Origin: Podarcis pityusensis
Taxonomy: Eukaryota
Assembly (NCBI GenBank): GCA_964106645.2
Contig: OZ067045.1
Length of the DNA: 64,000 bases
Strand: one strand, 5' to 3'
How positions within the stretch are numbered: the first letter of the stretch is position 1; each line of letters opens with the position of its first letter. Of the stretch, positions 1 to 45,949 are shown piece after piece. The notes below the pieces were generated by a model. The model was not told where the DNA came from and did no database searches. It saw nothing but the letters and a program-made list of their open reading frames with translations. The translations under genes and the position numbers were made by a program.

Positions 1-683
1 GCAGCGCGGACACGCAGGACCATCGGGGGAAAAGGACGCGGACGGAGCAGGCCGGGGACGGTCAGCTGGGACGGGACGAGGACGTCCGGGCATGGGGAGG
101 AGGGAGAGAAAAGCAGAAGCGGAGACGGGCAGGAATCGACGCGGGGCGGAGGCGACCGGGCGGAACGAGAAGCGAGCCAGAAGAGGCGGGAGGTGGCAGG
201 ATTAGGCCGCAGGTTAATGGGGGCGGCTCGGGAGGAGCTGGGAAACGGGGGGGGGGGGAACCCAATCGACTCGGCCAGGATCAAGGCGGGCGGGTGGGTG
301 TTTTGAACAGAGGTTTTTGGCGGGGACAGGAACGCCCGGGGTTAGTCGTTTCCATAATGGCGGACGAGTTAAATAAAAACCGAGTCACTCCAACAGGCCG
401 TGGTTGGCAGCGGCGGAGAGGGTGAGGCGGCGGCGGGTTGGGCAAGGCCGAGCTAAGCAGCCGCGCCTCTGTCTATTTATCCAGGCCCGGCCTGGTTCCG
501 GCAGAGGCGCTGCTCTGGGAGGCCGATGGGCGGCAGTACCAGGCCGGCATCAGGGCGATGGGGACGGTAGAGGGAGACAAAGCCCCGCTCCCCATCGGCG
601 GCGCCGCGGCGGGTCCCAGCCCGAGCCCCATCGTGACACCTAGAGGCCGGAGAAAGCGACTGCAAACCCCCCGCGCTGCTTAC

Positions 684-870
684 CTGTCCCGGAGGCGCCT
701 CCGGGCCGCCCCTGCTGCCCCGGGCCCCGCCCCGCTCGGGCCCTGCGGAGCTCCTACTGCCGCTGCCCCGCCGCTAGCGGCCGCCGCCAGCGCCCAGCAC
801 CAGCTCGCGGTTTAATCGTTCCACAGTCGCCTCGGACACAAAATGGCGGCCGAGAGGAACAGTGCGCCTG
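684..870 (-). other. CTCF: Non-coding first exon of CTCF (5' end approximate)
   Basis: Minus strand reads GCCGCCATTTTGTGTCCGAGGCGACTGTGGAACGATTAAACCGCG, resembling the vertebrate CTCF 5'UTR as I recall it. Strong donor CAG|GTAAGC at 684/683. Synteny with RIPOR1. No CTCF coding sequence is in the window. Confidence 0.75.
839..850 (+). promoter_or_regulatory. YY1 consensus site CAAAATGGCGGC
   Basis: Matches the YY1 consensus, inside putative CTCF exon 1. A second AATGGCGG lies at 356-363. Confidence 0.7.
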
Positions 871-1023
871 CGCCAGCCCGGCAGCCGCGGCCGCCGAAGC
901 CGAGCGAAGGGAGGAGGGAGCGGGAGAAGCGGCCGCGCGGAGCACCATGGGAGGAGCCGCTGGGCGCCAACTTCAAATAGAGGACCTAGAAAGGCCGAAG
1001 CGGACGTGAGGGCGGGTGGCGCT

Positions 1024-1094
1024 GTGACGTCACGCGCGGCCTGGGCCGAGGGTGCAGAGCACTTGCACGTTGCAAGCGCGGGCAAAGGGATTGG
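1024..1094. promoter_or_regulatory. CRE palindrome GTGACGTCAC (1024-1033) and CCAAT box (ATTGG, 1090-1094)
   Basis: Exact motifs 150-230 bp upstream of the putative CTCF exon 1. Confidence 0.55.
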
Positions 1095-2244
1095 TTCCGC
1101 GGTGTGGCGCCCTCTTGAGGTGACGTTGGCCCTGTTGCCACCTGCCGAGAAAGGAAAATCTCTGTCAACCGGCGGGGGTGTCACGGGCGTCGTGTTGGTA
1201 TAATCAGGAGCAAATTGGTGCAAACGTGTCCAGAAGCAAAATAGGCGTGCTTGGATATGTAAGTTAACTGCAGCTTGTCAGAGGCAGTTTGTGATTGCAC
1301 ACCTTTGCCTCAAAATAGAGATGCCACTTATTTTTATATTAGAATTAAACCTTTAAGAATCCCTTAGTAGGCAGAAATTCAACAGGCAAAGCTGCCACCT
1401 GTCAGTTTATAACTGTGGTGAGAAATACTGCTGTCCTTTTTAATTTGATGCACAGCCATCAAAGCCCTGATACCCAAAAGAGCAGGGGGTGGGGTGGGAT
1501 CTACAATCTTTTAAATCTTTTAAATTTTTAAAGATCTACAATCTTTAAAAGTCATGGGGATGTTTGCTTTACACATCTCATTTGTCTTATTTGAAAGGCA
1601 TAGTAAATTGAATTGACCCTAACCAGGGAAAGGGTCACAACAGGTGGGTTGATGTCCTTTCAAAGTCCATACAGTATTTGTTAGGATATGTACCGTACAT
1701 GGAATGTAGGTAAACTAACTGCAACCCACCCCAATTCTTAGTGAAGGGTTCCCGCCTCCTTGAAATGTCTAAGAGGAGAGCAGTTTGTAGTTGAAAGTGA
1801 GTATCAGAAATTCAGCAGAAAACGTACTAAAGAGATTTGCTTGTGTCCCATTCCACATTCAGGCAGTTTAGATTTTACTTTAAAGTGGTGCTTGGTTTCT
1901 AAAATGGGAAGTAGCTCTATCTAGAATCCCCTTACCTGTCCTTACGGAGCCAGTGGATTATCGTTATTCAGAGTGTTCCTTGCTGCATATGTAACACGAA
2001 TGTAGTGACTATAATATGTTTGGTGGTTGTTTTTAAACACATTTCTTCTACTTTAATAGTATTTATATACCTCCCCTCACCACCAAAATATCCTCTATAT
2101 ATCTCTAATCCCTATTCTTTAATTAATCCTAGTTCTTTAATTGGAGCTGTGGTAATTTTTGTGGCCTTGCAGCAGAAGGTGCCATCTTGAAGGGAAACAG
2201 AGTTTTCTACAAAAGAACAGTTGTCTCCTAGAAGAAATCAACAT

Positions 2245-27474: not shown

Positions 27475-27553
27475 CAGTCGAGAATTCCTCTTGGACTCGC
27501 GGATTTGGGTGCTCAGCTTCTCCAGCTCCAGCTGGTGCACCTCCAGATAAGCA
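27475..27553 (-). CDS. RIPOR1: RIPOR1 exon AYLEVHQLELEKLSTQIRESKRNSRL
   Basis: 79 nt, AACAG acceptor, GTGAGT donor, phase 2 to 0. Confidence 0.95.
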
Positions 27554-28337
27554 CTGTTAGGGGAGAAATGGGGTAAGCAGAAGCAGCAGGACTCTTCCCC
27601 TTTAAGTAAAGAGATATGGGGAGACAGCATCCTGACCACTCTTTCAAACTTCTACAGGATGTTATCCTTGGCAGCAAGGACCCAAACAGAATCCTTGCTT
27701 CCAGATTCCCAGGAGGCTGTGCCCAGTTCAGCTGTGTCCAGCAGAGCTTTCGGTTCGCCAGCTTCACTGAGAAGGCTACTGGTATAGACTAAGGTTTAAG
27801 CAAACATACTGTGCTATTTGCCTGCATGTACCCTCACCGACTCAAACATACTTTGTGGAGAGTTGGTGGGGAGAGGGAATATGCAGGCACGTAGTTCATT
27901 GTTGTGTGGGAAGAAATATTATACTGTATGTGTATAGAGGGAGGCAGGGCAAAAAACTATCCCACCCTCCACAGGCCAGTTTTTACAGGTGGGAGAGGTC
28001 TGAGAAAGTTGGTTGGGGCTGATGGGAGTTGTAGTCCAAAACATCTGGAGGACACTGGGCTGGCAAAGGCTGGGGCATACACATGTTAGTTATGGTTATG
28101 GTTAGTGTTTGTTATGATCACTGGGCAGCTGGCGCCCCACCCCGTTGAGATCTGGGTTCTATCTACCACTGTTGGGTTTGTACTGCTAGTGAGTTTGCAT
28201 TCCAACATTCATTCTAGGGAGCCTCAAACATCAACATGTGATAGAAAGATGGCATTAAACAATTTTCAATGAAACAGGCACCTCCACCCCAAGCCACAGG
28301 TTAAGAGGGTGGGACTTCTGGCAGCAGCATCACTCAC

Positions 28338-28490
28338 GTCAGTCCCTTCTTCAGTGCTTCATACACTTCGTCGAGTCGCTCCGGCTGGGGCACCTTGGGT
28401 GGAGGGGATTTGTGGGACATTGAAAACATCCTACTGACCCTGGAGCCAGACTTCCTGGAGACCGTTGGGGTGCTGAAGGCAGGGAAATTC
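28338..28490 (-). CDS. RIPOR1: RIPOR1 exon NFPAFSTP..KVPQPERLDEVYEALKKGL
   Basis: 153 nt, TTTAG acceptor, GTGAGT donor, phase 2 to 2. Confidence 0.95.
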
Positions 28491-31400: not shown

Positions 31401-32718
31401 TTTGGTCAGTACTTCAAGAATCCAACCTCACATATTCAAGTTCGCCAAGGAAAAAATTATCCACTTGCCAAATGTTCCTACAGGAAGAAATAAAGGGCCT
31501 TCTAACATGTGGTCGCTGTGTCTATGTTATGGACTGGCTTGTTAGTCAGATTGCATCCTACTCCTTCCTCCCACGAGAGATTCTGCTCCCGCTCTAAACC
31601 AGTGGTAATGAAACACAGAACTGTCTTAGGAGTGCATTCACTAGATAAACAAGTAGTTTTCAAGCATTCTTAAAATGGGGCAAGCATATCAACACCTCAT
31701 CACCCCACCCAACAGGTTGAAAAGGTGACTATCTACAGAGAGGAGCATCTTCTATCTGGTGAGGTTCCTTGCGCATTTCGGTGCCATACCCAGCTTTCAG
31801 AAAATGCCACCTTTTCACATGCTAAGAAGCACTCTCCACCCAGACAGCAGATACAGCCACAGATTGACTGTATGGTGAAAGAAACTATACTTCTGAAAAG
31901 CTTGGGATTCCCAAAACCCTGTGTGGGGATGCACAGCCTCAACATCAGAAATGGCTCATATGCACAGCTTGTAACTACTAGAAGCTGTGCATTCAATCTA
32001 GTGGGCCCCAGCCTGTAGAACTTTCTTTCAGCTGGGATGGGACATACAACCTTCTTGCTGAATCTCCAATGCATGACTAAAACTTTCCTGTTCCAGCAGG
32101 TATTTTAAGGTAGTGTTCAGTTTTATGATCAATTTTTATATTCCTATTTTCTGTGGATTATTTTTTTTATGTACACCACTTAGAAATTCAAATAATTAAG
32201 TGGTATGTGGATGTCTTAAATAAACAAACAAACAACATAGGGAATAATTATGGCAATTTATATAGGCAGGGGAAGCATCTCTGGAGCAAAGGCAGTGAGC
32301 GAATACTACAAAGTAAGAAGCCAGCCACTGTTCTTGCTGAAGTAATGTCCTATGTTATGAACAAAGCTGTGTGCATTTCAGCTTTGTTATTTTAAAGTAA
32401 GTATTTCATGTCCTGATGGGAATGAAGCTTAAGAACATGTGGTCAGCAGCAGTACCTCAGGAGATTTGAGGAGGCTGAGCAAGACATCCAGTTGCCAGGG
32501 GATTGCATCATTTTGCATATTCTAGCCCTTCTGCTATAACTAGCTGAAACAAAATACATTATGCACAATAAATTAAAATGTAAGTACAGCAGCATGACTC
32601 TCAGTCCTGGGTGGGATAGGAAGGCAATTAGCCATTTAGGCATCACATACCACCATTCACCTTGTTTTCCACATGCTCCAACTCCCATTTCCACCAAGGA
32701 AGCTTTTTCTGGGCCTAC

Positions 32719-32845
32719 CTGAAAGATTTGTCCTGAGTGGAGTTGACACCAGCGAACGATTGACTCCTATTGATCCTGACCACCAGGCTGCGCCGCTGGG
32801 GCCGCACTGAGAGTGACATCGTCGAGCTCCACCTGGAGGGACGCC
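32719..32845 (-). CDS. RIPOR1: RIPOR1 exon (G)RPSRWSSTMSLSVRPQRRSLVVRINRSQSFAGVNSTQDKSF; internal ATG at 32817-32819
   Basis: 127 nt, CGCAG acceptor, GTAGGC donor; frame is open from the acceptor (phase 1) through the ATG. Confidence 0.93.
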
Positions 32846-35808
32846 CTGCGGAGACAACAGAAGAGCATGGCATCAAGGACAAAGTGGGGGAGCAAAAGGA
32901 ACCATGTACAGGGAGAGGAGAGGGAGGAGGGAATCAAAGCTGCAGGAGGTGGAATGATGGTGGGAAAAGCACTTTTTATATGTAACCAAAACAACCACTG
33001 AGTCATAAGTTTATAAAAAGCGACACCCCTAATTACAATGATACACAACTTAGACTTAGCTGAGCTACAACATCTCAGAAAATGAAGAGAAGGATCAAAG
33101 TTATGATCTAGTAAGGGAGGCTCATAACCCAGCTGCCTTGCAAAGGGCTCCTGTGTAGCTCATTCCTCAACCTCCTTTTGCTAAAACACAACCTGGAATA
33201 TCAAACACACCAATCTGCCTTGTACCAAGTCAGACACATAGTTATCATTTTATTATGACAGGCAATGGCTAAGGCCTGATATCTACTGCATTCCTTTAAA
33301 CTAGAGCTGCTGGCAATCTCTTACTCTTCCACCAAGTATAGCAACACCAGGTTAGTACAGTGGAGGGTGATGTACTGGGAGGTCAGTCCACTGGTTTTGG
33401 AAGCAGTAGGACCTTGCCTATACCACTTCTCCACTCACAGCAGCTGCAGAGTCAACTGACACCCCCACAGCCTCCCCCCAAGTCAGGGCTGAAGAACCTG
33501 CAAGCCTCCAGATGTTGCTGGACAACTCGCATCATCACTGATCATGTTGTCTGAGGTTGATGGGAGCTGGAGTCCAACAACATGTGAAGGGCCACAGGTT
33601 CCCCATCCCTGCCCCAACTGCTATCCCACTCTAAGAATCTACCATGGGAATAAACAGACAAGACTGCCTTCCCTCTGTTCTAGATCCTTCAGACCAGGTC
33701 TTATTTTTGAGAGGAGGCATTGTCCCATATCAAACACTGAGTAGAGGGCAAAAGTCAAGGTGTTGCCCTATTGTCCAAGTGCTGGAAGCAACAGTCTCTC
33801 CAGAATTGGCTGTCTAAGTGTCCTTCCTTCACTCGCTTGCTGTTTACAGGAGAACTAATACAGTTGTACAAAAGGGCCATGCTTGATTTTGAAGACAGAG
33901 GTGAGGAAACTCTGGCCTGTGGGCCAAATATGGCCTCTTAGGCTTGTCAAGCCCCACAGAGGAATGCCCTATGCCCTTGAGTGCTTTTATCTGGATGGAA
34001 TGTGTACTTGAACTGTGATAATACCTCTGGCTTGCCTGGATTCTGGATGGAGATGTGTTTCATGTGTTTGGGGCTGAATATGTAGAAACCTCTGGCTTTT
34101 TTTGTAGCTGAAATGCAACTTGCTGTACAAAGGTAAGAGTCACATCCTTTGTTCCACCAACTTTCCCCACCAGCACGTGGCCCCCAGAAGTTCACCCATG
34201 GTGGAATGTGGCCCTCAGGCTAAACAAAGTTCCTCACTTCCGAGAGGAAACCCATCTCTTGTTGCAACTGTTCACCTTAGGGATTTTTAGTGGAGCTTTG
34301 TAAATCAATTACAAATGTCACCAGCCTACCTATTCCCATATGTTAATCATTTGTGGCTTAGTGAAAGAGCCTGAAAGGCCAAAAAAAAAAAAAAAAAAAA
34401 AAGCAGGGGAGGGAATACACAGAACTGCCCCACACTCCAGCTGGCTATTTTCTGTACACAACAGCCTTTAGAAATCCCCAATCAACCTTGTTTCCTGCAC
34501 ATTTATTTAAATATTTATAAACCACATTCTTGGCCAAAGGTGGCACCCCAAATTATGCCAAATTCCAGAGGGTGAGCTGTGTGTGCTGCAGAAAACACAC
34601 AGTCTTGTCGCACCTTGAAGGACTGGCATATTTATATAAACCAAGATCTGCCAAGATCAGAGAGCCCACAATATCCAATTTCATAGCTTGTTGAGGACAA
34701 GAGGCAATGGTCCCTTGTCTCCTGACCCTTGGGGAACTATTTCTAGTGTCTAGAATGAAACTAAACAGAATGCTTTGGAATGTCATTTGCTTAGGTAGGA
34801 GTGGCTCAGGTTTAAGATGATTAACTCAGATTTTCAAGAATTTACCAATAGGAGGGGAGGAAACTTAAGGATAGAACTATGTAACTGGACCATTGGATTG
34901 ATATTCAGAGTTGCGTCCCTAGCCAGTTTGACTTGCAAATTTCCAATTCTTCTGCATCCACTGATTTTTAGCAGGTTGTTGTGCTGTTTTCTATAGACTA
35001 GAAATATAAATCTTCGTTGACTTCTGATTTCTTCTAGGGAGAATTATTAAAATGTTCTTGCTAGGAGCAAGAAACTATCATGGCCTGAGATGAAGGCACC
35101 AATTCACCTTGTCCAGTGATTCTTAGGACAAACTGGCCACAACCCTGATGGCTTTTAGGTTGAGCAACAAAAATGTTTATTTTCCACTTGGCTCTTGCTT
35201 TTATTGAAACTGAAGGTTTTGATTCATTCTTCCTATTTTTTAAATGTCATGTTTAACATTCAGTTTTAATTCTGTTATTGTTTAAACCGCTATTTTCTTT
35301 TCTTGCAAACTGCTAGGGTGCGTGTGTGCTAGGGCTGAACACTGTATAAAAATGTTTTTTATAAATAAAGTAAACATGTATCACAACACATTTCTCTGGG
35401 GACCAAACTGGGCCTGGTTCTCCTCAGACCCTTGCAATGTGACCATTTTTTTGCTCTCAGTTCTCATGGCACATTGTGCAGTTCTATGGCAAGGGTGGGA
35501 AAACCTTTTCAGCCTGAGGACTACGTTCCCTTATAAGCAGCCTTACAGGAACCACATGCCAATGGTGGGCAGGGACAGAGGCAGAGGTGGTGGGCCAATG
35601 AATGTTAACTTTTACCTTTGTACAGTAAGCTAGTTTCCACACACACTGACGCACAGTTCTCTATCATCTGTCCAGGCAAGCAGGAGTCATCAGAGTGCAA
35701 GGATGCATTCCAGCAGACCTCAGGTTTCCCACCCCTGATCTGTGCCTTTGACACACCTGCCCTCCAGCCCTGGCAGGCATCACCCTCCACATCACAAGGG
35801 AGGGACTA

Positions 35809-36014
35809 CAGTGATACCTCACGTTAAGAACTTAATTCGTTCTGGAGGTCCGTTCTTAACCTGAAACTGTTCTTAACCACTTTAGCTAATGGGGCTTCCC
35901 GCTGCCACTGCACAATTTCTGTTCTCATCCTGAAGCAAAGTTCTTAACCCGAGGTACTATTTCTGGATTAGAGGAGTCTGTAACCTGAAGCGTCTGTAAC
36001 CTGAGGTACCACTG
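35809..36014. mobile_element. Tigger/mariner-like MITE, copy 1
   Basis: TIR CAGTGATACCTC / GAGGTACCACTG, TA TSD; homologous to 50112-50337 and 53631-53853. Confidence 0.85.
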
Positions 36015-36030
36015 TACTTATACCCTACAG

Positions 36031-36234: not shown

Positions 36235-37667
36235 CCCTACAGAGTCTGCCAGGCAGTCTCTCAGTTCACACTGTCAAGCTCTTCTAGGCCCAAAGGATCT
36301 CAGAAGAACTCAAAGCCCTTCGGATGCTAGCTGCTTGACCAAGCGATTGCCACCAACTTGCAGGCAGAGTCAAGGAGTCGTCAGGGCCTAAACACAAGCC
36401 TCTGGCTTTGGGATCTCCTTCTAAAGAGGCCAAGACTAGCACCAGCATTGTACTCTTTTCAGAGCCAGATTAATATATATTTTTTAAACTGTTCAGTCTT
36501 CAAAAATTTTACAGTATGGTTTTAGGTGGCTGAATACTTCTTTGGTTACAACCTCTGTTGTTTTATTATACTGCTCTGATTTTTACTGTTTATTTTTAAT
36601 ATTGTAGTGATATTTGCAGTTTTTATGTAAATTTTTCTGGAATCCATGTCTGGGTGAAGCTGCAGTTTAGATATAATGAATGAATGAATTAATGGTCCTT
36701 TACACAGAAAGGGATGAATCAACCATTGAGGCCTGTCTCAACACAAGACGAGCACATGCCAAGTTCCAGCCCAAGAAACATCTCCTTTCCCTTACATGGT
36801 TTGACAGGAGACAACTTGGACCTGTCAACACAGGCAGTAGTATGAGATGGTATAGCTGACTGTACCAATTTAGAATCAAGATGGAGTATATTACACTCCC
36901 CAAATAAAAACCCACCCTTCAAAGAGAGGTGAGGAGGAACCTGCCACAGCAAGAAGAAAAGATTCTTGCCCTATCAGCAAGCTGTTATACAGGCAGCGAC
37001 CATTTTGTGTGAAGGTTCTGTTCCTGGCACCCATGCATGTGTAAGCCTGCCCTGTTACTCCCTGTTCCAGGTCCAAAAGAACTCATGTGTTGGTGCTTAC
37101 TTGGAGGATGTTTTCCACATAAAAATGTGATCCACTCCCTGAACTCTGAAATGGTACAGTTCATGCTCTCATCTCAGTGCTCAACTATACATGAGGCAAA
37201 GCAGGCCTCAGAGCCAACCTACCACCCCACAATGCAAACCAGGAAAAACTCAGGAAAGCCTTTTAAAAAAAGTATCACATTTCTATCCCAACCATCACAC
37301 AGGGTTGAATATATGCTATGTGTCCCCATCTTCTCATTTTGTGCTCACAACAGACTGGTGAGGTAAGTACACAGAGATTTTGACTCAGTCAGCCAGTGAG
37401 CTTAATGGATGATTTCAGCCCAGGTCTACCCGGTCCAACGGTGTACGCAATACAATCACAGTCCTTCAAACCCGAATCTCAGACAGGTCCTTAACAATCT
37501 CTCTCTTGAGGACAAAATGTGAAGGCATCACAGCTGCTCATGATTTCCTCAGAGCACCCTTTCCAACATAGGTGGAGTTACAGATAGGTAGCCGTGTTGG
37601 TCTGCCATAGTCAAAATAAAAAAAACCCTTCCAGTAGCACCTTTAAGACCAACTAAGTTAGTTCTTG

Positions 37668-37705
37668 GTATGAGCTTTCGTGTGCAAGCACACTTCTTCA
37701 GATAC
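37668..37705 (-). ncRNA. Minimal type I hammerhead ribozyme motif, sense to the RIPOR1 pre-mRNA
   Basis: Exact reverse complement of 37737-37774. Confidence 0.65.
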
Positions 37706-37736
37706 CTATCTGAAGAAGTGTATCTGAAGTATCTAC

Positions 37737-37774
37737 GTATCTGAAGAAGTGTGCTTGCACACGAAAGCTCATAC
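37737..37774 (+). ncRNA. Minimal type I hammerhead ribozyme motif
   Basis: GUAU-CUGAAGA-A-GUGUG(CUUG)CACAC-GAAA-GC-UC/AUAC: stem I GUAU:AUAC, intact core, stem II with CUUG tetraloop, palindromic AGCU stem III. Predicted cleavage after 37770. Confidence 0.65.
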
Positions 37775-38433
37775 CAAGAACTAACTTAGTTGGTCTTAAA
37801 GGTGCTACTGGAAGGGTTTTTTTTATTTCAACATAGGTGGGAACATTAAGAGCTGAAGTTTACACTAAAAGTCTGGGACTTGACATGGCGGGAGGAGGAA
37901 GAGGCCAAACCCTCTCTGGGGGAAGGTAATGAGTGTGCTGTTTGCCCGAATTGGATAGGTGTCAGCCCCTTCCAGGACTGCTTCCTGCATAGGACTAGCA
38001 CTTGCCAACATGCAGACAGCACTGAACAGATGGGCAAGGATAAAGTGCCATGCAATCACAACGCTCAAAGGCCAGAGCTGGTGGTTCTTTTTGTAATTGG
38101 TTTATTTGGTGCTCTGGACTCTCAATAACTGCTTGCTCTCTTCTAGCACTCTGGAAATCCAGGCATACATACACCGCACACATACACTTACTTCTGTACT
38201 AAGAGAAGCTGAATTTTATGCAAATGAATCATGCCTGACTTATTTTTTAAAAATATATTTTGCATTGTTTAATCTGGCTTTGCTAGCAGGGAGAAGAGCA
38301 GCTATGTAGGATACACTTGTGAACATATTGACAAATGCAAGAGGTAGGCTTTCATAAAAATCTGGATTCTGAAGCCAACACTGATGCTGTGCTTTTTATA
38401 TGCTCCCTCAGAATCACAACATATATATAAATC

Positions 38434-44157: not shown

Positions 44158-45949
44158 CATTAGCTCTTTGCTTCAAGTTTTTTCCAACCGTACAATGGGA
44201 ATACTAATGAGCAGCCTCTTCGGGATTCCAATCACGACATACATACAGGCTGTGAAAAACTTTGCACAAAGAAGTTAGTAAGAACCATCAACACCAGCCC
44301 ATCATTTCTAGAGTGGGAAAAATCCCAGTACAATTGTGCAGTGTGTTCTGATCAATTTCTAGGTTAATGAACCAAACCTCTCTCTCCCACAGCTTTGGTC
44401 ACTTTATTACCCTTCTTCTGAACATGTACATTTTTCTAGGAGTTTGAAATCTCCACGGTACTTCACATACATTTTCTAAGCCATTCTTGCAAGTCTGTAA
44501 GGTGAGCAAACTAATAGGCGTCATGAAATAAGATGGGGAACTGCAGCTTCCACGGGGAAAAGAGTGTGCAGGAGCTTGAGGCATCACCACACCATGATTT
44601 AGCCGTGGCTTCTGAACCAAGCCAGTAAGCTGCCTCAGGCCATATTGTGACTTCACAGCTAAAAGTCAGATATGTGAAATCAGATACCTCCCAGATCACA
44701 CAGGGTTAAGCTATACACTAGGTTCAATACGAAGCTTTTTTCTTACACAGAGGTAAGTGTGCAGGCCTGACATGGTTTGCAACAACAGCTCATGGAGGAG
44801 CAAAGTTTAATCCTTCCCTCCCCATCCATTCGCAGCTGTTATAAATAGCTTTTAAAAATTGAGTACCCACTGGCACCAACTGGGTTTTATTCTGTCACTG
44901 GGTGTGTGTAAATTTCCTCCTGGTGCCCCTGCCATCTGAAATGAGGGAGGAAGAAAACAGGGAATGGGCCTTTTCAGTTAGAACACTCCATTTATGCTAT
45001 GCTCTCCCTTGGGAGGCTTGCAAAACACCCATTTCAATCTCCTTTCAGCGCCATTTGAAGACCTTTAAAAACAACAATCCAAGCCTTTCAAACATGTTTC
45101 CCCTCCTGGAAATTTATGCTGCAACGACTGCTGTTTTTCTTTTTATGCAGTGTTAATTTTTATAACTTGATTTCACTGTGCTTTGTTGTAATTTTATTGC
45201 TATTTGGTTGGGTGCCCTGAGAATATATTATTGAAATGTGGGATATAAATGCAGTAACTAAGTACAGCATGCCAACCTTCTATTCCTGTCTATATCAATT
45301 AAAAGCTTCTAGTCCTTATTACCAAATGTTTCACCTTTACTAATCAAAGCAGTTGGAAAACTTTGGTCTCTTTCACATACTCCTTCTGAGATTTTAGGAG
45401 CCATTTCCCACCACTTTCAAACCTGTATTTGTAGCTCACTGTTTAAAACAAAAGCTTGGATCCTACGAGACTGAATTTTGCAGTTGTCCTGCCTTGGATA
45501 CAGGTTGCCCTCTCCCTGAAGTATGAATTGCATACGGCCTCTACTGCACAGGTCTTCACACCGTCCTTAAAAACTCACCTGTTTCCGGTTGCTCTTTCTT
45601 AAGAGTATCAGCGCTGCTCATTTTTGAGATTCCTGAGTGGCTCTAAACTGTTTTCATGAAAAGATATTGCAGAATGGTTCTTCTAGCCTACTGCCTTTTA
45701 GACTGCGGTCTTACAATTGTTTTAAAACTGCCTAATGTTCTCAGCGTATCTGACATTTTGTTTGCCTAAGCCAGCTCATGAAGGTTAATTCCCTACAAAG
45801 TGGCTGAGGAATAAACATATAAAAGCAAACACACACAGCGGCTATGCTATCTATCCCTTACGTTCTGCGCAACATCATGCATGCTGATTAGTACCATTTA
45901 AAATTAAAAATTAAAAATTAAAACTGCAACATGCAGTAAGAGTTGTAAA

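Follow-up and report, generated by a model that had tools for sequence, protein, structure and literature searches.

A recent hammerhead-bearing palindrome in a RIPOR1 intron of Podarcis pityusensis, probably a truncated, promoterless copy of a Penelope-like retroelement

Introduction

Insertions of EN+ Penelope-like elements (PLEs) are described as comprising an inverted, 5′-truncated copy, a tail of 30 to 40 bp on one end and a target-site duplication (TSD), with full-length copies occurring in partial tandems and with a pLTR which overlaps the start of the open reading frame (ORF) and harbors a TATA box and an initiator-like motif (PMC8557442; PMC3846280). PAc, a Poseidon element of Anolis carolinensis, encodes a reverse transcriptase (RT) with a C-terminal GIY-YIG domain and carries a hammerhead at its pLTR-ORF junction; in vitro, both target strands are nicked and extended, and two internal RT start sites are located a tail apart near the ORF start (PMC11167929). 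The PAc hammerhead is reported to cleave only in the presence of protein; it is dispensable for in vitro insertion and leaves no ends in RNA-seq data (PMC11167929). The minimal hammerhead ribozymes (HHRs) of PLEs are characterized by a CUGANGA and GAAA core, an extra base before stem II, a G-C pair closing stem II, a 4-bp stem I and a palindromic AGCU in place of stem III (PMC4209133). Such minimal HHRs cleave weakly even when dimeric (PMC4209133; PMC6765202), and opposite-strand pairs situated 100 to 700 bp apart have already been noted in Schistosoma (PMC4209133).

Here, we describe an insert in the RIPOR1 gene of P. pityusensis, located in a 64-kb stretch of contig OZ067045.1 (hereafter, the window). 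It displays the published PLE insertion form, i.e., an inverted arm, a one-sided 38-nt tail and a 12-bp TSD, and its family shares the pLTR organization and the partial tandems of canonical EN+ PLEs; it differs from these in that both arms end at the hammerhead edge, so that what remains is a 253-bp palindrome without the ORF body, and the TSD of the Podarcis family spans 12 to 13 bp as opposed to 8 to 10 bp in rotifers (PMC8557442; PMC3846280). We consider it probable that the insert is a promoterless, 5′-truncated copy, of recent origin, of the end of a Penelope-like retroelement that carries the hammerhead. It was likely assembled from two separately primed cDNAs placed head to head, and its hammerhead, predicted to be locked in the hairpin, is likely inert in RIPOR1 RNA.

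Structure and position of the insert

The 253-nt insert is flanked by a perfect 12-bp duplication (CAACATAGGTGG), and its parts are listed in Table 1, in which, as throughout the family analysis, element positions are counted from the hammerhead cut site. The initial annotation had reported an insert of this length between 12-bp direct repeats with hammerhead motifs on both strands, and both the coordinates and the sequences were confirmed. The short arm and the inner 92 nt of the long arm do not differ at any position (37737 to 37828 versus 37614 to 37705), and the single mismatch in the 95-nt inverted repeat called at the locus is located in the spacer. When compared to the natural full-length copy L183, the long arm exhibits two differences, one of which is peculiar to L183. 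The 28 element-copied nucleotides of the spacer are made up of three stretches of 15, 8 and 5 nt, each copied from element positions -32 to -18, and the spacer was also detected as a tandem repeat with a period of 14. A fold of -182.2 kcal/mol (z = -25.5) is predicted for the hairpin, and a rare variant, carried by seven loci genome-wide, is present on both arms. The element's TATA box is missing from the insert, which is therefore likely a dead end.

Table 1. Features of the insert and neighboring RIPOR1 exons (window coordinates)
Feature	Position	Strand	Remark
Left target-site duplication, 12 bp	37564..37575		
Long, tail-bearing arm, 130 nt	37576..37705	-	Element -33 to +96; pLTR end and ORF start
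PLE tail, 38 nt, on a single side only	37576..37613	-	Element +59 to +96; tail as defined in PMC8557442 and PMC11167929
Minimal type I hammerhead motif, RIPOR1 pre-mRNA sense	37668..37705	-	Predicted cut 37672/37671
Locus-specific junction (spacer), 31 nt	37706..37736		28 nt element-copied, 3 unassigned bases
Short inverted arm, 92 nt	37737..37828	+	Element -33 to +58
Minimal type I hammerhead motif	37737..37774	+	Predicted cut 37770/37771
AATAAA hexamer, RIPOR1 sense strand, hairpin base	37822..37827	-	Mirror copy 37615-37620 on +
Right target-site duplication, 12 bp	37829..37840		
RIPOR1 exon downstream of host intron	32718..32846	-	AG acceptor
Nearest alternative RIPOR1 first coding exon upstream of insert	45577..45621	-	14/15 residues match P0129; GT donor follows

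A minus-strand exon near 18.3 to 19.0 kb shares 99% identity with Podarcis raffonei RIPOR1 over 233 residues. Seven of the 11 lacertid cluster proteins possess an N-terminal extension that could be mapped, to four places, the first coding exons lying at window positions 45621 to 45577 and at window-extended positions 66055, 66829 and 88935. As all four sites lie beyond the insert, it resides in intron 1 of those isoforms; this placement, which rests on homology to annotated lacertid isoforms, agrees with the intronic position initially assigned. Contigs of a run from a related species (X15, presumed to be RNA) exhibited minus-strand splicing only at a downstream RIPOR1 intron (27553 to 28338).

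An empty-site allele was also sought. The flank is single copy in the assembly, and among the joints listed in the contig mapping, in which repeats swamped the signal and 921 further joints occurred, none skipped the insert. One X1 contig terminates precisely where the left duplication does, at 37575, without overhang into the repeat; this matches a filled/empty branch and constitutes a weak hint, as X1 may be the assembly's own sample.

The surrounding sequence harbors additional features. A strong CpG island at window positions 1 to 1500, past the RIPOR1 3′ end, is probably the promoter of the next gene, which we take, by human synteny, to be CTCF as a candidate. A very high-copy short repeat at 35877 to 36018 attained the highest summed depth in the contig mapping. 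Upstream of RIPOR1, three window-extended intervals (108037 to 111051, 119138 to 122973 and 129422 to 132955; L195 to L197) presumably represent, as judged by motif, a 1,004-codon LINE-like endonuclease/RT frame, exons of a C-factor-like short-chain dehydrogenase and a second LINE.

The parent family

Full-length copies of the family consist of a 3,010-bp unit arranged in partial tandems and encode a single 951-codon frame with RT and GIY-YIG domains (RVT_1, E = 4.5e-12; GIY-YIG, E = 2.8e-4 and 21.6 bits against a cut-off of 22.6), the GIY-YIG domain scoring 22.7 and 22.9 bits in two partial copies. The frame contains a CX4CxxC linker (CNKPRCQLC), which fits the CX2-5CxxC linker between RT and EN that marks Neptune/Nematis-type PLEs (PMC8557442). 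The 130-nt arm sequence was found, in full or in part, on both sides of the ORF in all eight fetched loci, and the 3,010-bp tandem units in L183 display the pLTR arrangement expected of partial tandems. L183 (G000:C9:17784000-17793999) comprises two tandem full-length units with open 951-codon frames which are 99.98% identical, and is a candidate active source locus. Copies are about 99% identical, and 150 of the 659 RT candidates were scored, nearly all at 96 to 97%.

At the sequence level, these relatives establish that the insert belongs to an EN+ Penelope-like family, and the Penelope-like origin advanced in the initial annotation is thus borne out by full-length copies with RT and GIY-YIG domains and the same 130 nt flanking their ORF. 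The perfect TSD, the identical arms and the existence of intact full-length relatives of more than 99% identity point to a recent insertion, as had likewise been suggested. With PAc, the family shares an RT with a C-terminal GIY-YIG domain, a hammerhead at the pLTR-ORF junction and two ends located a tail apart near the ORF start; it differs in its Neptune/Nematis-type CX4CxxC linker, which is absent from Penelope/Poseidon elements, and in its candidate start codons, which lie downstream of the cut site, whereas that of PAc lies in stem II (PMC11167929). A limited literature search, conducted without most subscription journals, Repbase and Dfam, returned nothing relevant on Podarcis Penelope elements or lizard Neptune insertions, and this lizard family may already be named.

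Architecture of insertions across the family

Exact matches in the genome number 4,439 for a 36-nt hammerhead piece and 2,712 for a 31-nt tail piece, and tight head-to-head junctions (at the hammerhead edge, with no more than 12 nt between) occur at 577 loci. In order to describe insertions, a sample was chosen by the tail, and hence unbiased with regard to the 5′ end, comprising 90 regions from the first 91 of the 2,712 matches, all on contig C1; following the removal of four regions as duplicates or internal pLTRs (L088, L104, L159 and L169), 86 loci were retained. Sixty of these are inverted and 44 are both inverted and no longer than 320 nt, which extrapolates to a genome total of roughly 1,400 palindromes of this size. 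In 75 of the 86 loci the tail arm has its 3′ end between +90 and +98, and in 56 of the 60 inverted loci the inverted arm has its outer end between +47 and +65, such that the family possesses two fixed 3′ ends, at about +58 and +95. The modal TSD of 12 to 13 bp was found in 42 of the 60 inverted loci. Among the 30 loci closest to the RIPOR1 insert, spacers vary from locus to locus and arm ends also differ. Two loci located 12 kb apart, L087 and L088, share the same insert structure and junction and are probably the result of a local duplication.

The RIPOR1 locus is ordinary, being one young copy among hundreds, and the view of this insertion as something special is not upheld, since the same geometry recurs at at least 577 loci and corresponds to the published PLE form. 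By itself the locus matters little; the family matters somewhat, its statistics being modestly informative on how PLEs make an inverted arm plus tail and on what the hammerhead does. Presumably active in this lizard, the family retains intact 951-codon copies and has left fresh junctions by the thousand; it thereby connects genomes with the two start sites observed in vitro and lends itself to testing. Introns also receive from it perfect 90-bp hairpins that could become substrates for editing or small RNAs.

5′ ends of the arms

Arm 5′ ends cluster at -36 to -32 (33 of 146), corresponding to a density of 6.6 per nt, compared to 0.26 at -79 to -37 and 1.4 at -31 to -1, and none of the 146 falls at the cut site (0 to +2); five tail-arm calls at +63, which lie outside both position classes, are a reference-variant artefact. 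The cluster is preceded by TATATAG at -66 and coincides with an initiator-like TCAGT whose A is at -36, the spacing between the two being 30 nt. In sets that include the loci picked for similarity to the window (L001 to L030), a G precedes -33 ends in 28 of 44 cases (p = 4e-5), and 38 of 40 arms with the -35 boundary have a T just before it, in place of the element's A. The G fits cap copying, though microhomology with the partner arm could partly account for it. The T is only partly explained: it is not accounted for by the cap and represents the partner arm's last base in only some cases, untemplated addition or 2-nt slippage being possible.

From this arrangement, we infer that the element mRNA would start about 35 nt before the cut site, directed by the TATA box and initiator of the pLTR, and that cDNA synthesis would run off at the capped start. 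Such an arrangement is unlike that of Drosophila virilis Penelope, whose promoter is described as internal and TATA-less (PMC2377424). It is improbable, in our assessment, that the -35/-33 boundary is instead a 3′ splice site or another processing site, even if the initiator bases (CTTCTGTTTCAG) conform to a splice acceptor as well, a pyrimidine tract and CAG lie directly before -34 and are retained in older subfamilies, and an intron of D. virilis ends at hammerhead helix I (PMC4209133). No recurring upstream exon is present in 95 junctions at -36 to -33, only three long sense joins were observed (from +143, +144 and +149), none of them with a following GT, and the 30-nt distance between TATA box and initiator further argues against processing. 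If start-site run-off and priming at two sites (see below) are taken together, the genomic read-out of 5′ ends tips the balance slightly toward an inserted template that was not cleaved by the ribozyme.

In three independent loci, L135, L139 and L103 (G000:C1), the -35/-33 start immediately follows position +143, +149 or +144, respectively, and no GT donor is present; such joins point to either a jump of the RT to a favored site or a circular template of approximately 180 nt.

Assembly of the palindrome

In 31 of the 56 two-armed loci (BLAST boundaries), the inverted arm outreaches the tail arm on the 5′ side by more than 5 nt, in 7 of these by more than 30 nt and at most by about 900 nt; the tail arm extends further in 9, and the arms are level (within 5 nt) in 16. 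Fold-back of the tail-arm cDNA cannot copy bases which that cDNA lacks, and two separately primed cDNAs are therefore the better reading. The family's two fixed ends fit, by analogy, the paired RT start sites of PAc. In the proposed mechanism, the RT/GIY-YIG protein would introduce one nick into each target strand, with about 12 nt between the two, and priming would occur at two positions within the RNA close to the ORF start. Having copied about 92 or 130 nt, each cDNA would reach the capped 5′ end and run off, and the cDNA 3′ ends would then be joined via iterative templated end-joining or template jumping. The patchwork at the junction is reminiscent of polymerase-theta templated insertions or RT template jumps. 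On balance, we lean toward the view that in vertebrate PLEs such two-site priming near the capped mRNA 5′ end yields, as its commonest product, a palindrome of approximately 250 bp that forms double-stranded RNA (dsRNA), with a hammerhead which is both uncut and self-silenced.

Self-priming (fold-back) of a single cDNA, or synthesis on an antisense template, has been proposed for rotifer Penelope (PMC3846280) and is favored by the junction patches, which are copied from neighboring ends. Concordance between arms is also in its favor, as the subfamily marker +28T occurs on both arms in 9 of 52 pairs and on one arm in none, and the rare variant is found on both arms at the RIPOR1 locus. That locus is, however, the exception, given that the other two of the three two-armed carriers have the variant on one arm only; at RIPOR1, the shared variant would so imply one template or donor for both arms, or later conversion. 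These two discordant loci, the greater 5′ reach of the inverted arm in 31 of 56 loci and the fixed outer end of the short arm, which is consistent with a second site of RT initiation such as that determined for PAc (PMC11167929), render fold-back an unlikely origin of the family's palindromes. Still less tenable, and largely refuted, is amplification of the insert as a whole palindrome, in the manner of a MITE-like or retrozyme-like non-autonomous unit. Dozens of full-length lookalikes of 240 to 260 bp with 86 to 95% identity could be read in this way; a MITE, however, would amplify as an entire unit and keep a common interior, whereas the 30 closest loci have different spacers, arm ends vary and the palindrome has no TATA box. 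Non-LTR retrozymes resemble the insert in being small, non-coding, PLE-derived and equipped with a type I hammerhead, but are defined as head-to-tail tandem arrays of hammerhead monomers, whereas the insert is a single head-to-head unit, rebuilt at each insertion (10.64898/2026.07.22.740005). The initial annotation had noted that PLEs often have inverted terminal repeats; with two separately primed cDNAs as the preferred reading, and with spacers differing between loci, the arms are likely not terminal repeats of a unit that moves whole.

If priming at two sites is correct, the hundreds of young copies provide a genomic read-out that favors two-primer synthesis over self-priming and maps the mRNA start. 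Within the limited literature search, no publication was found with PLE arm-length statistics, a two-primer model or a twin-priming account.

Hammerhead motif and likely effect on RIPOR1

The 38-nt hammerhead motif and its exact reverse complement are the only two matches in the window, as opposed to none in 100 shuffles. The motif possesses an intact core, a 4-bp stem I, one extra base, a 5-bp stem II and a palindromic AGCU replacing stem III, and its assignment as a minimal type I (dimer-type) hammerhead, which was correctly made at the outset, is based on its fit to the minimal HHR described in PMC4209133 rather than on an Rfam match. It shares with those HHRs the core, the extra base before stem II and its closing G-C pair, the 4-bp stem I and the AGCU; it differs in its 5-bp stem II and in that the two copies occupy opposite strands, which renders a cis dimer impossible (PMC4209133). 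The predicted cut sites were derived from hammerhead numbering (CUC before stem I). The covariance-model check that had been suggested returned no Rfam hammerhead model for the insert at E <= 10, and Rfam miRNA-model matches on the hairpin, with scores below gathering, were rejected as hairpin artefacts. Seventy stem II variants were identified, mostly single changes within near-identical subfamilies, and no usable compensatory changes were found among them when stem covariation was sought. In a cofold of two 38-mers, a fully swapped duplex (-25.7 kcal/mol) is ahead of the double-hammerhead form (-11.1 kcal/mol), and the model thus gives no support for an active dimer.

The hammerheads point outward, such that the antisense arm is transcribed first in either direction and any transcript of the insert holds a single sense hammerhead without a cis partner. 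The predicted cost of forcing the hammerhead fold is 64 kcal/mol on the minus (RIPOR1) strand and 49 kcal/mol on the plus strand, and the pair probability of stems I and II rounds to 0 on the minus strand, as calculated by equilibrium modelling without proteins or editing. Given this order of transcription, this cost and the single sense copy, the ribozyme is likely inert in RIPOR1. RIPOR1 is expected to be unaffected or to experience a small effect of intronic dsRNA (editing); as routes to a small effect, the 92-bp duplex and the AATAAA hexamer appear, by sequence, more plausible than cleavage.

The initial annotation had envisaged a latent self-cleaving motif in the RIPOR1 pre-mRNA, masked unless unfolded, edited or paired in trans with other copies; as a switch, it would be freed by unfolding, A-to-I editing or trans interaction with PLE transcripts and protein. 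On the RIPOR1 sense strand, the core and both stems (I and II) are indeed intact, the arms contain 26 and 31 adenosines on the minus strand, thousands of copies could provide trans partners, and the related PAc ribozyme is protein-assisted (PMC11167929). Against this, the motifs lie on opposite strands, the blocking arm is made first, and the one sense copy per strand faces the predicted penalties given above; moreover, the insert ends at +96, while PAc activity, by analogy only, required the first 172 nt of the ORF (PMC11167929). The weak cleavage of minimal HHRs even as dimers (PMC4209133), the absence of cut-site ends among the 146 family arms and the age of the insertion, which as one young copy of hundreds is unlikely to have been selected for a role, likewise leave such a switch very improbable.

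Variation in the motif is evident elsewhere in the family. Older subfamilies (L025, L030 and L199 to L228) display a fully palindromic stem II with a CATG loop, and some carry U for C at the cut site. At L045 (1378 to 1729; G000:C1:6051943 region), an inverted tail arm precedes a head-to-tail series of 74-nt repeats with three sense hammerheads, and this locus, unlike the RIPOR1 insert, could form a cis dimer.
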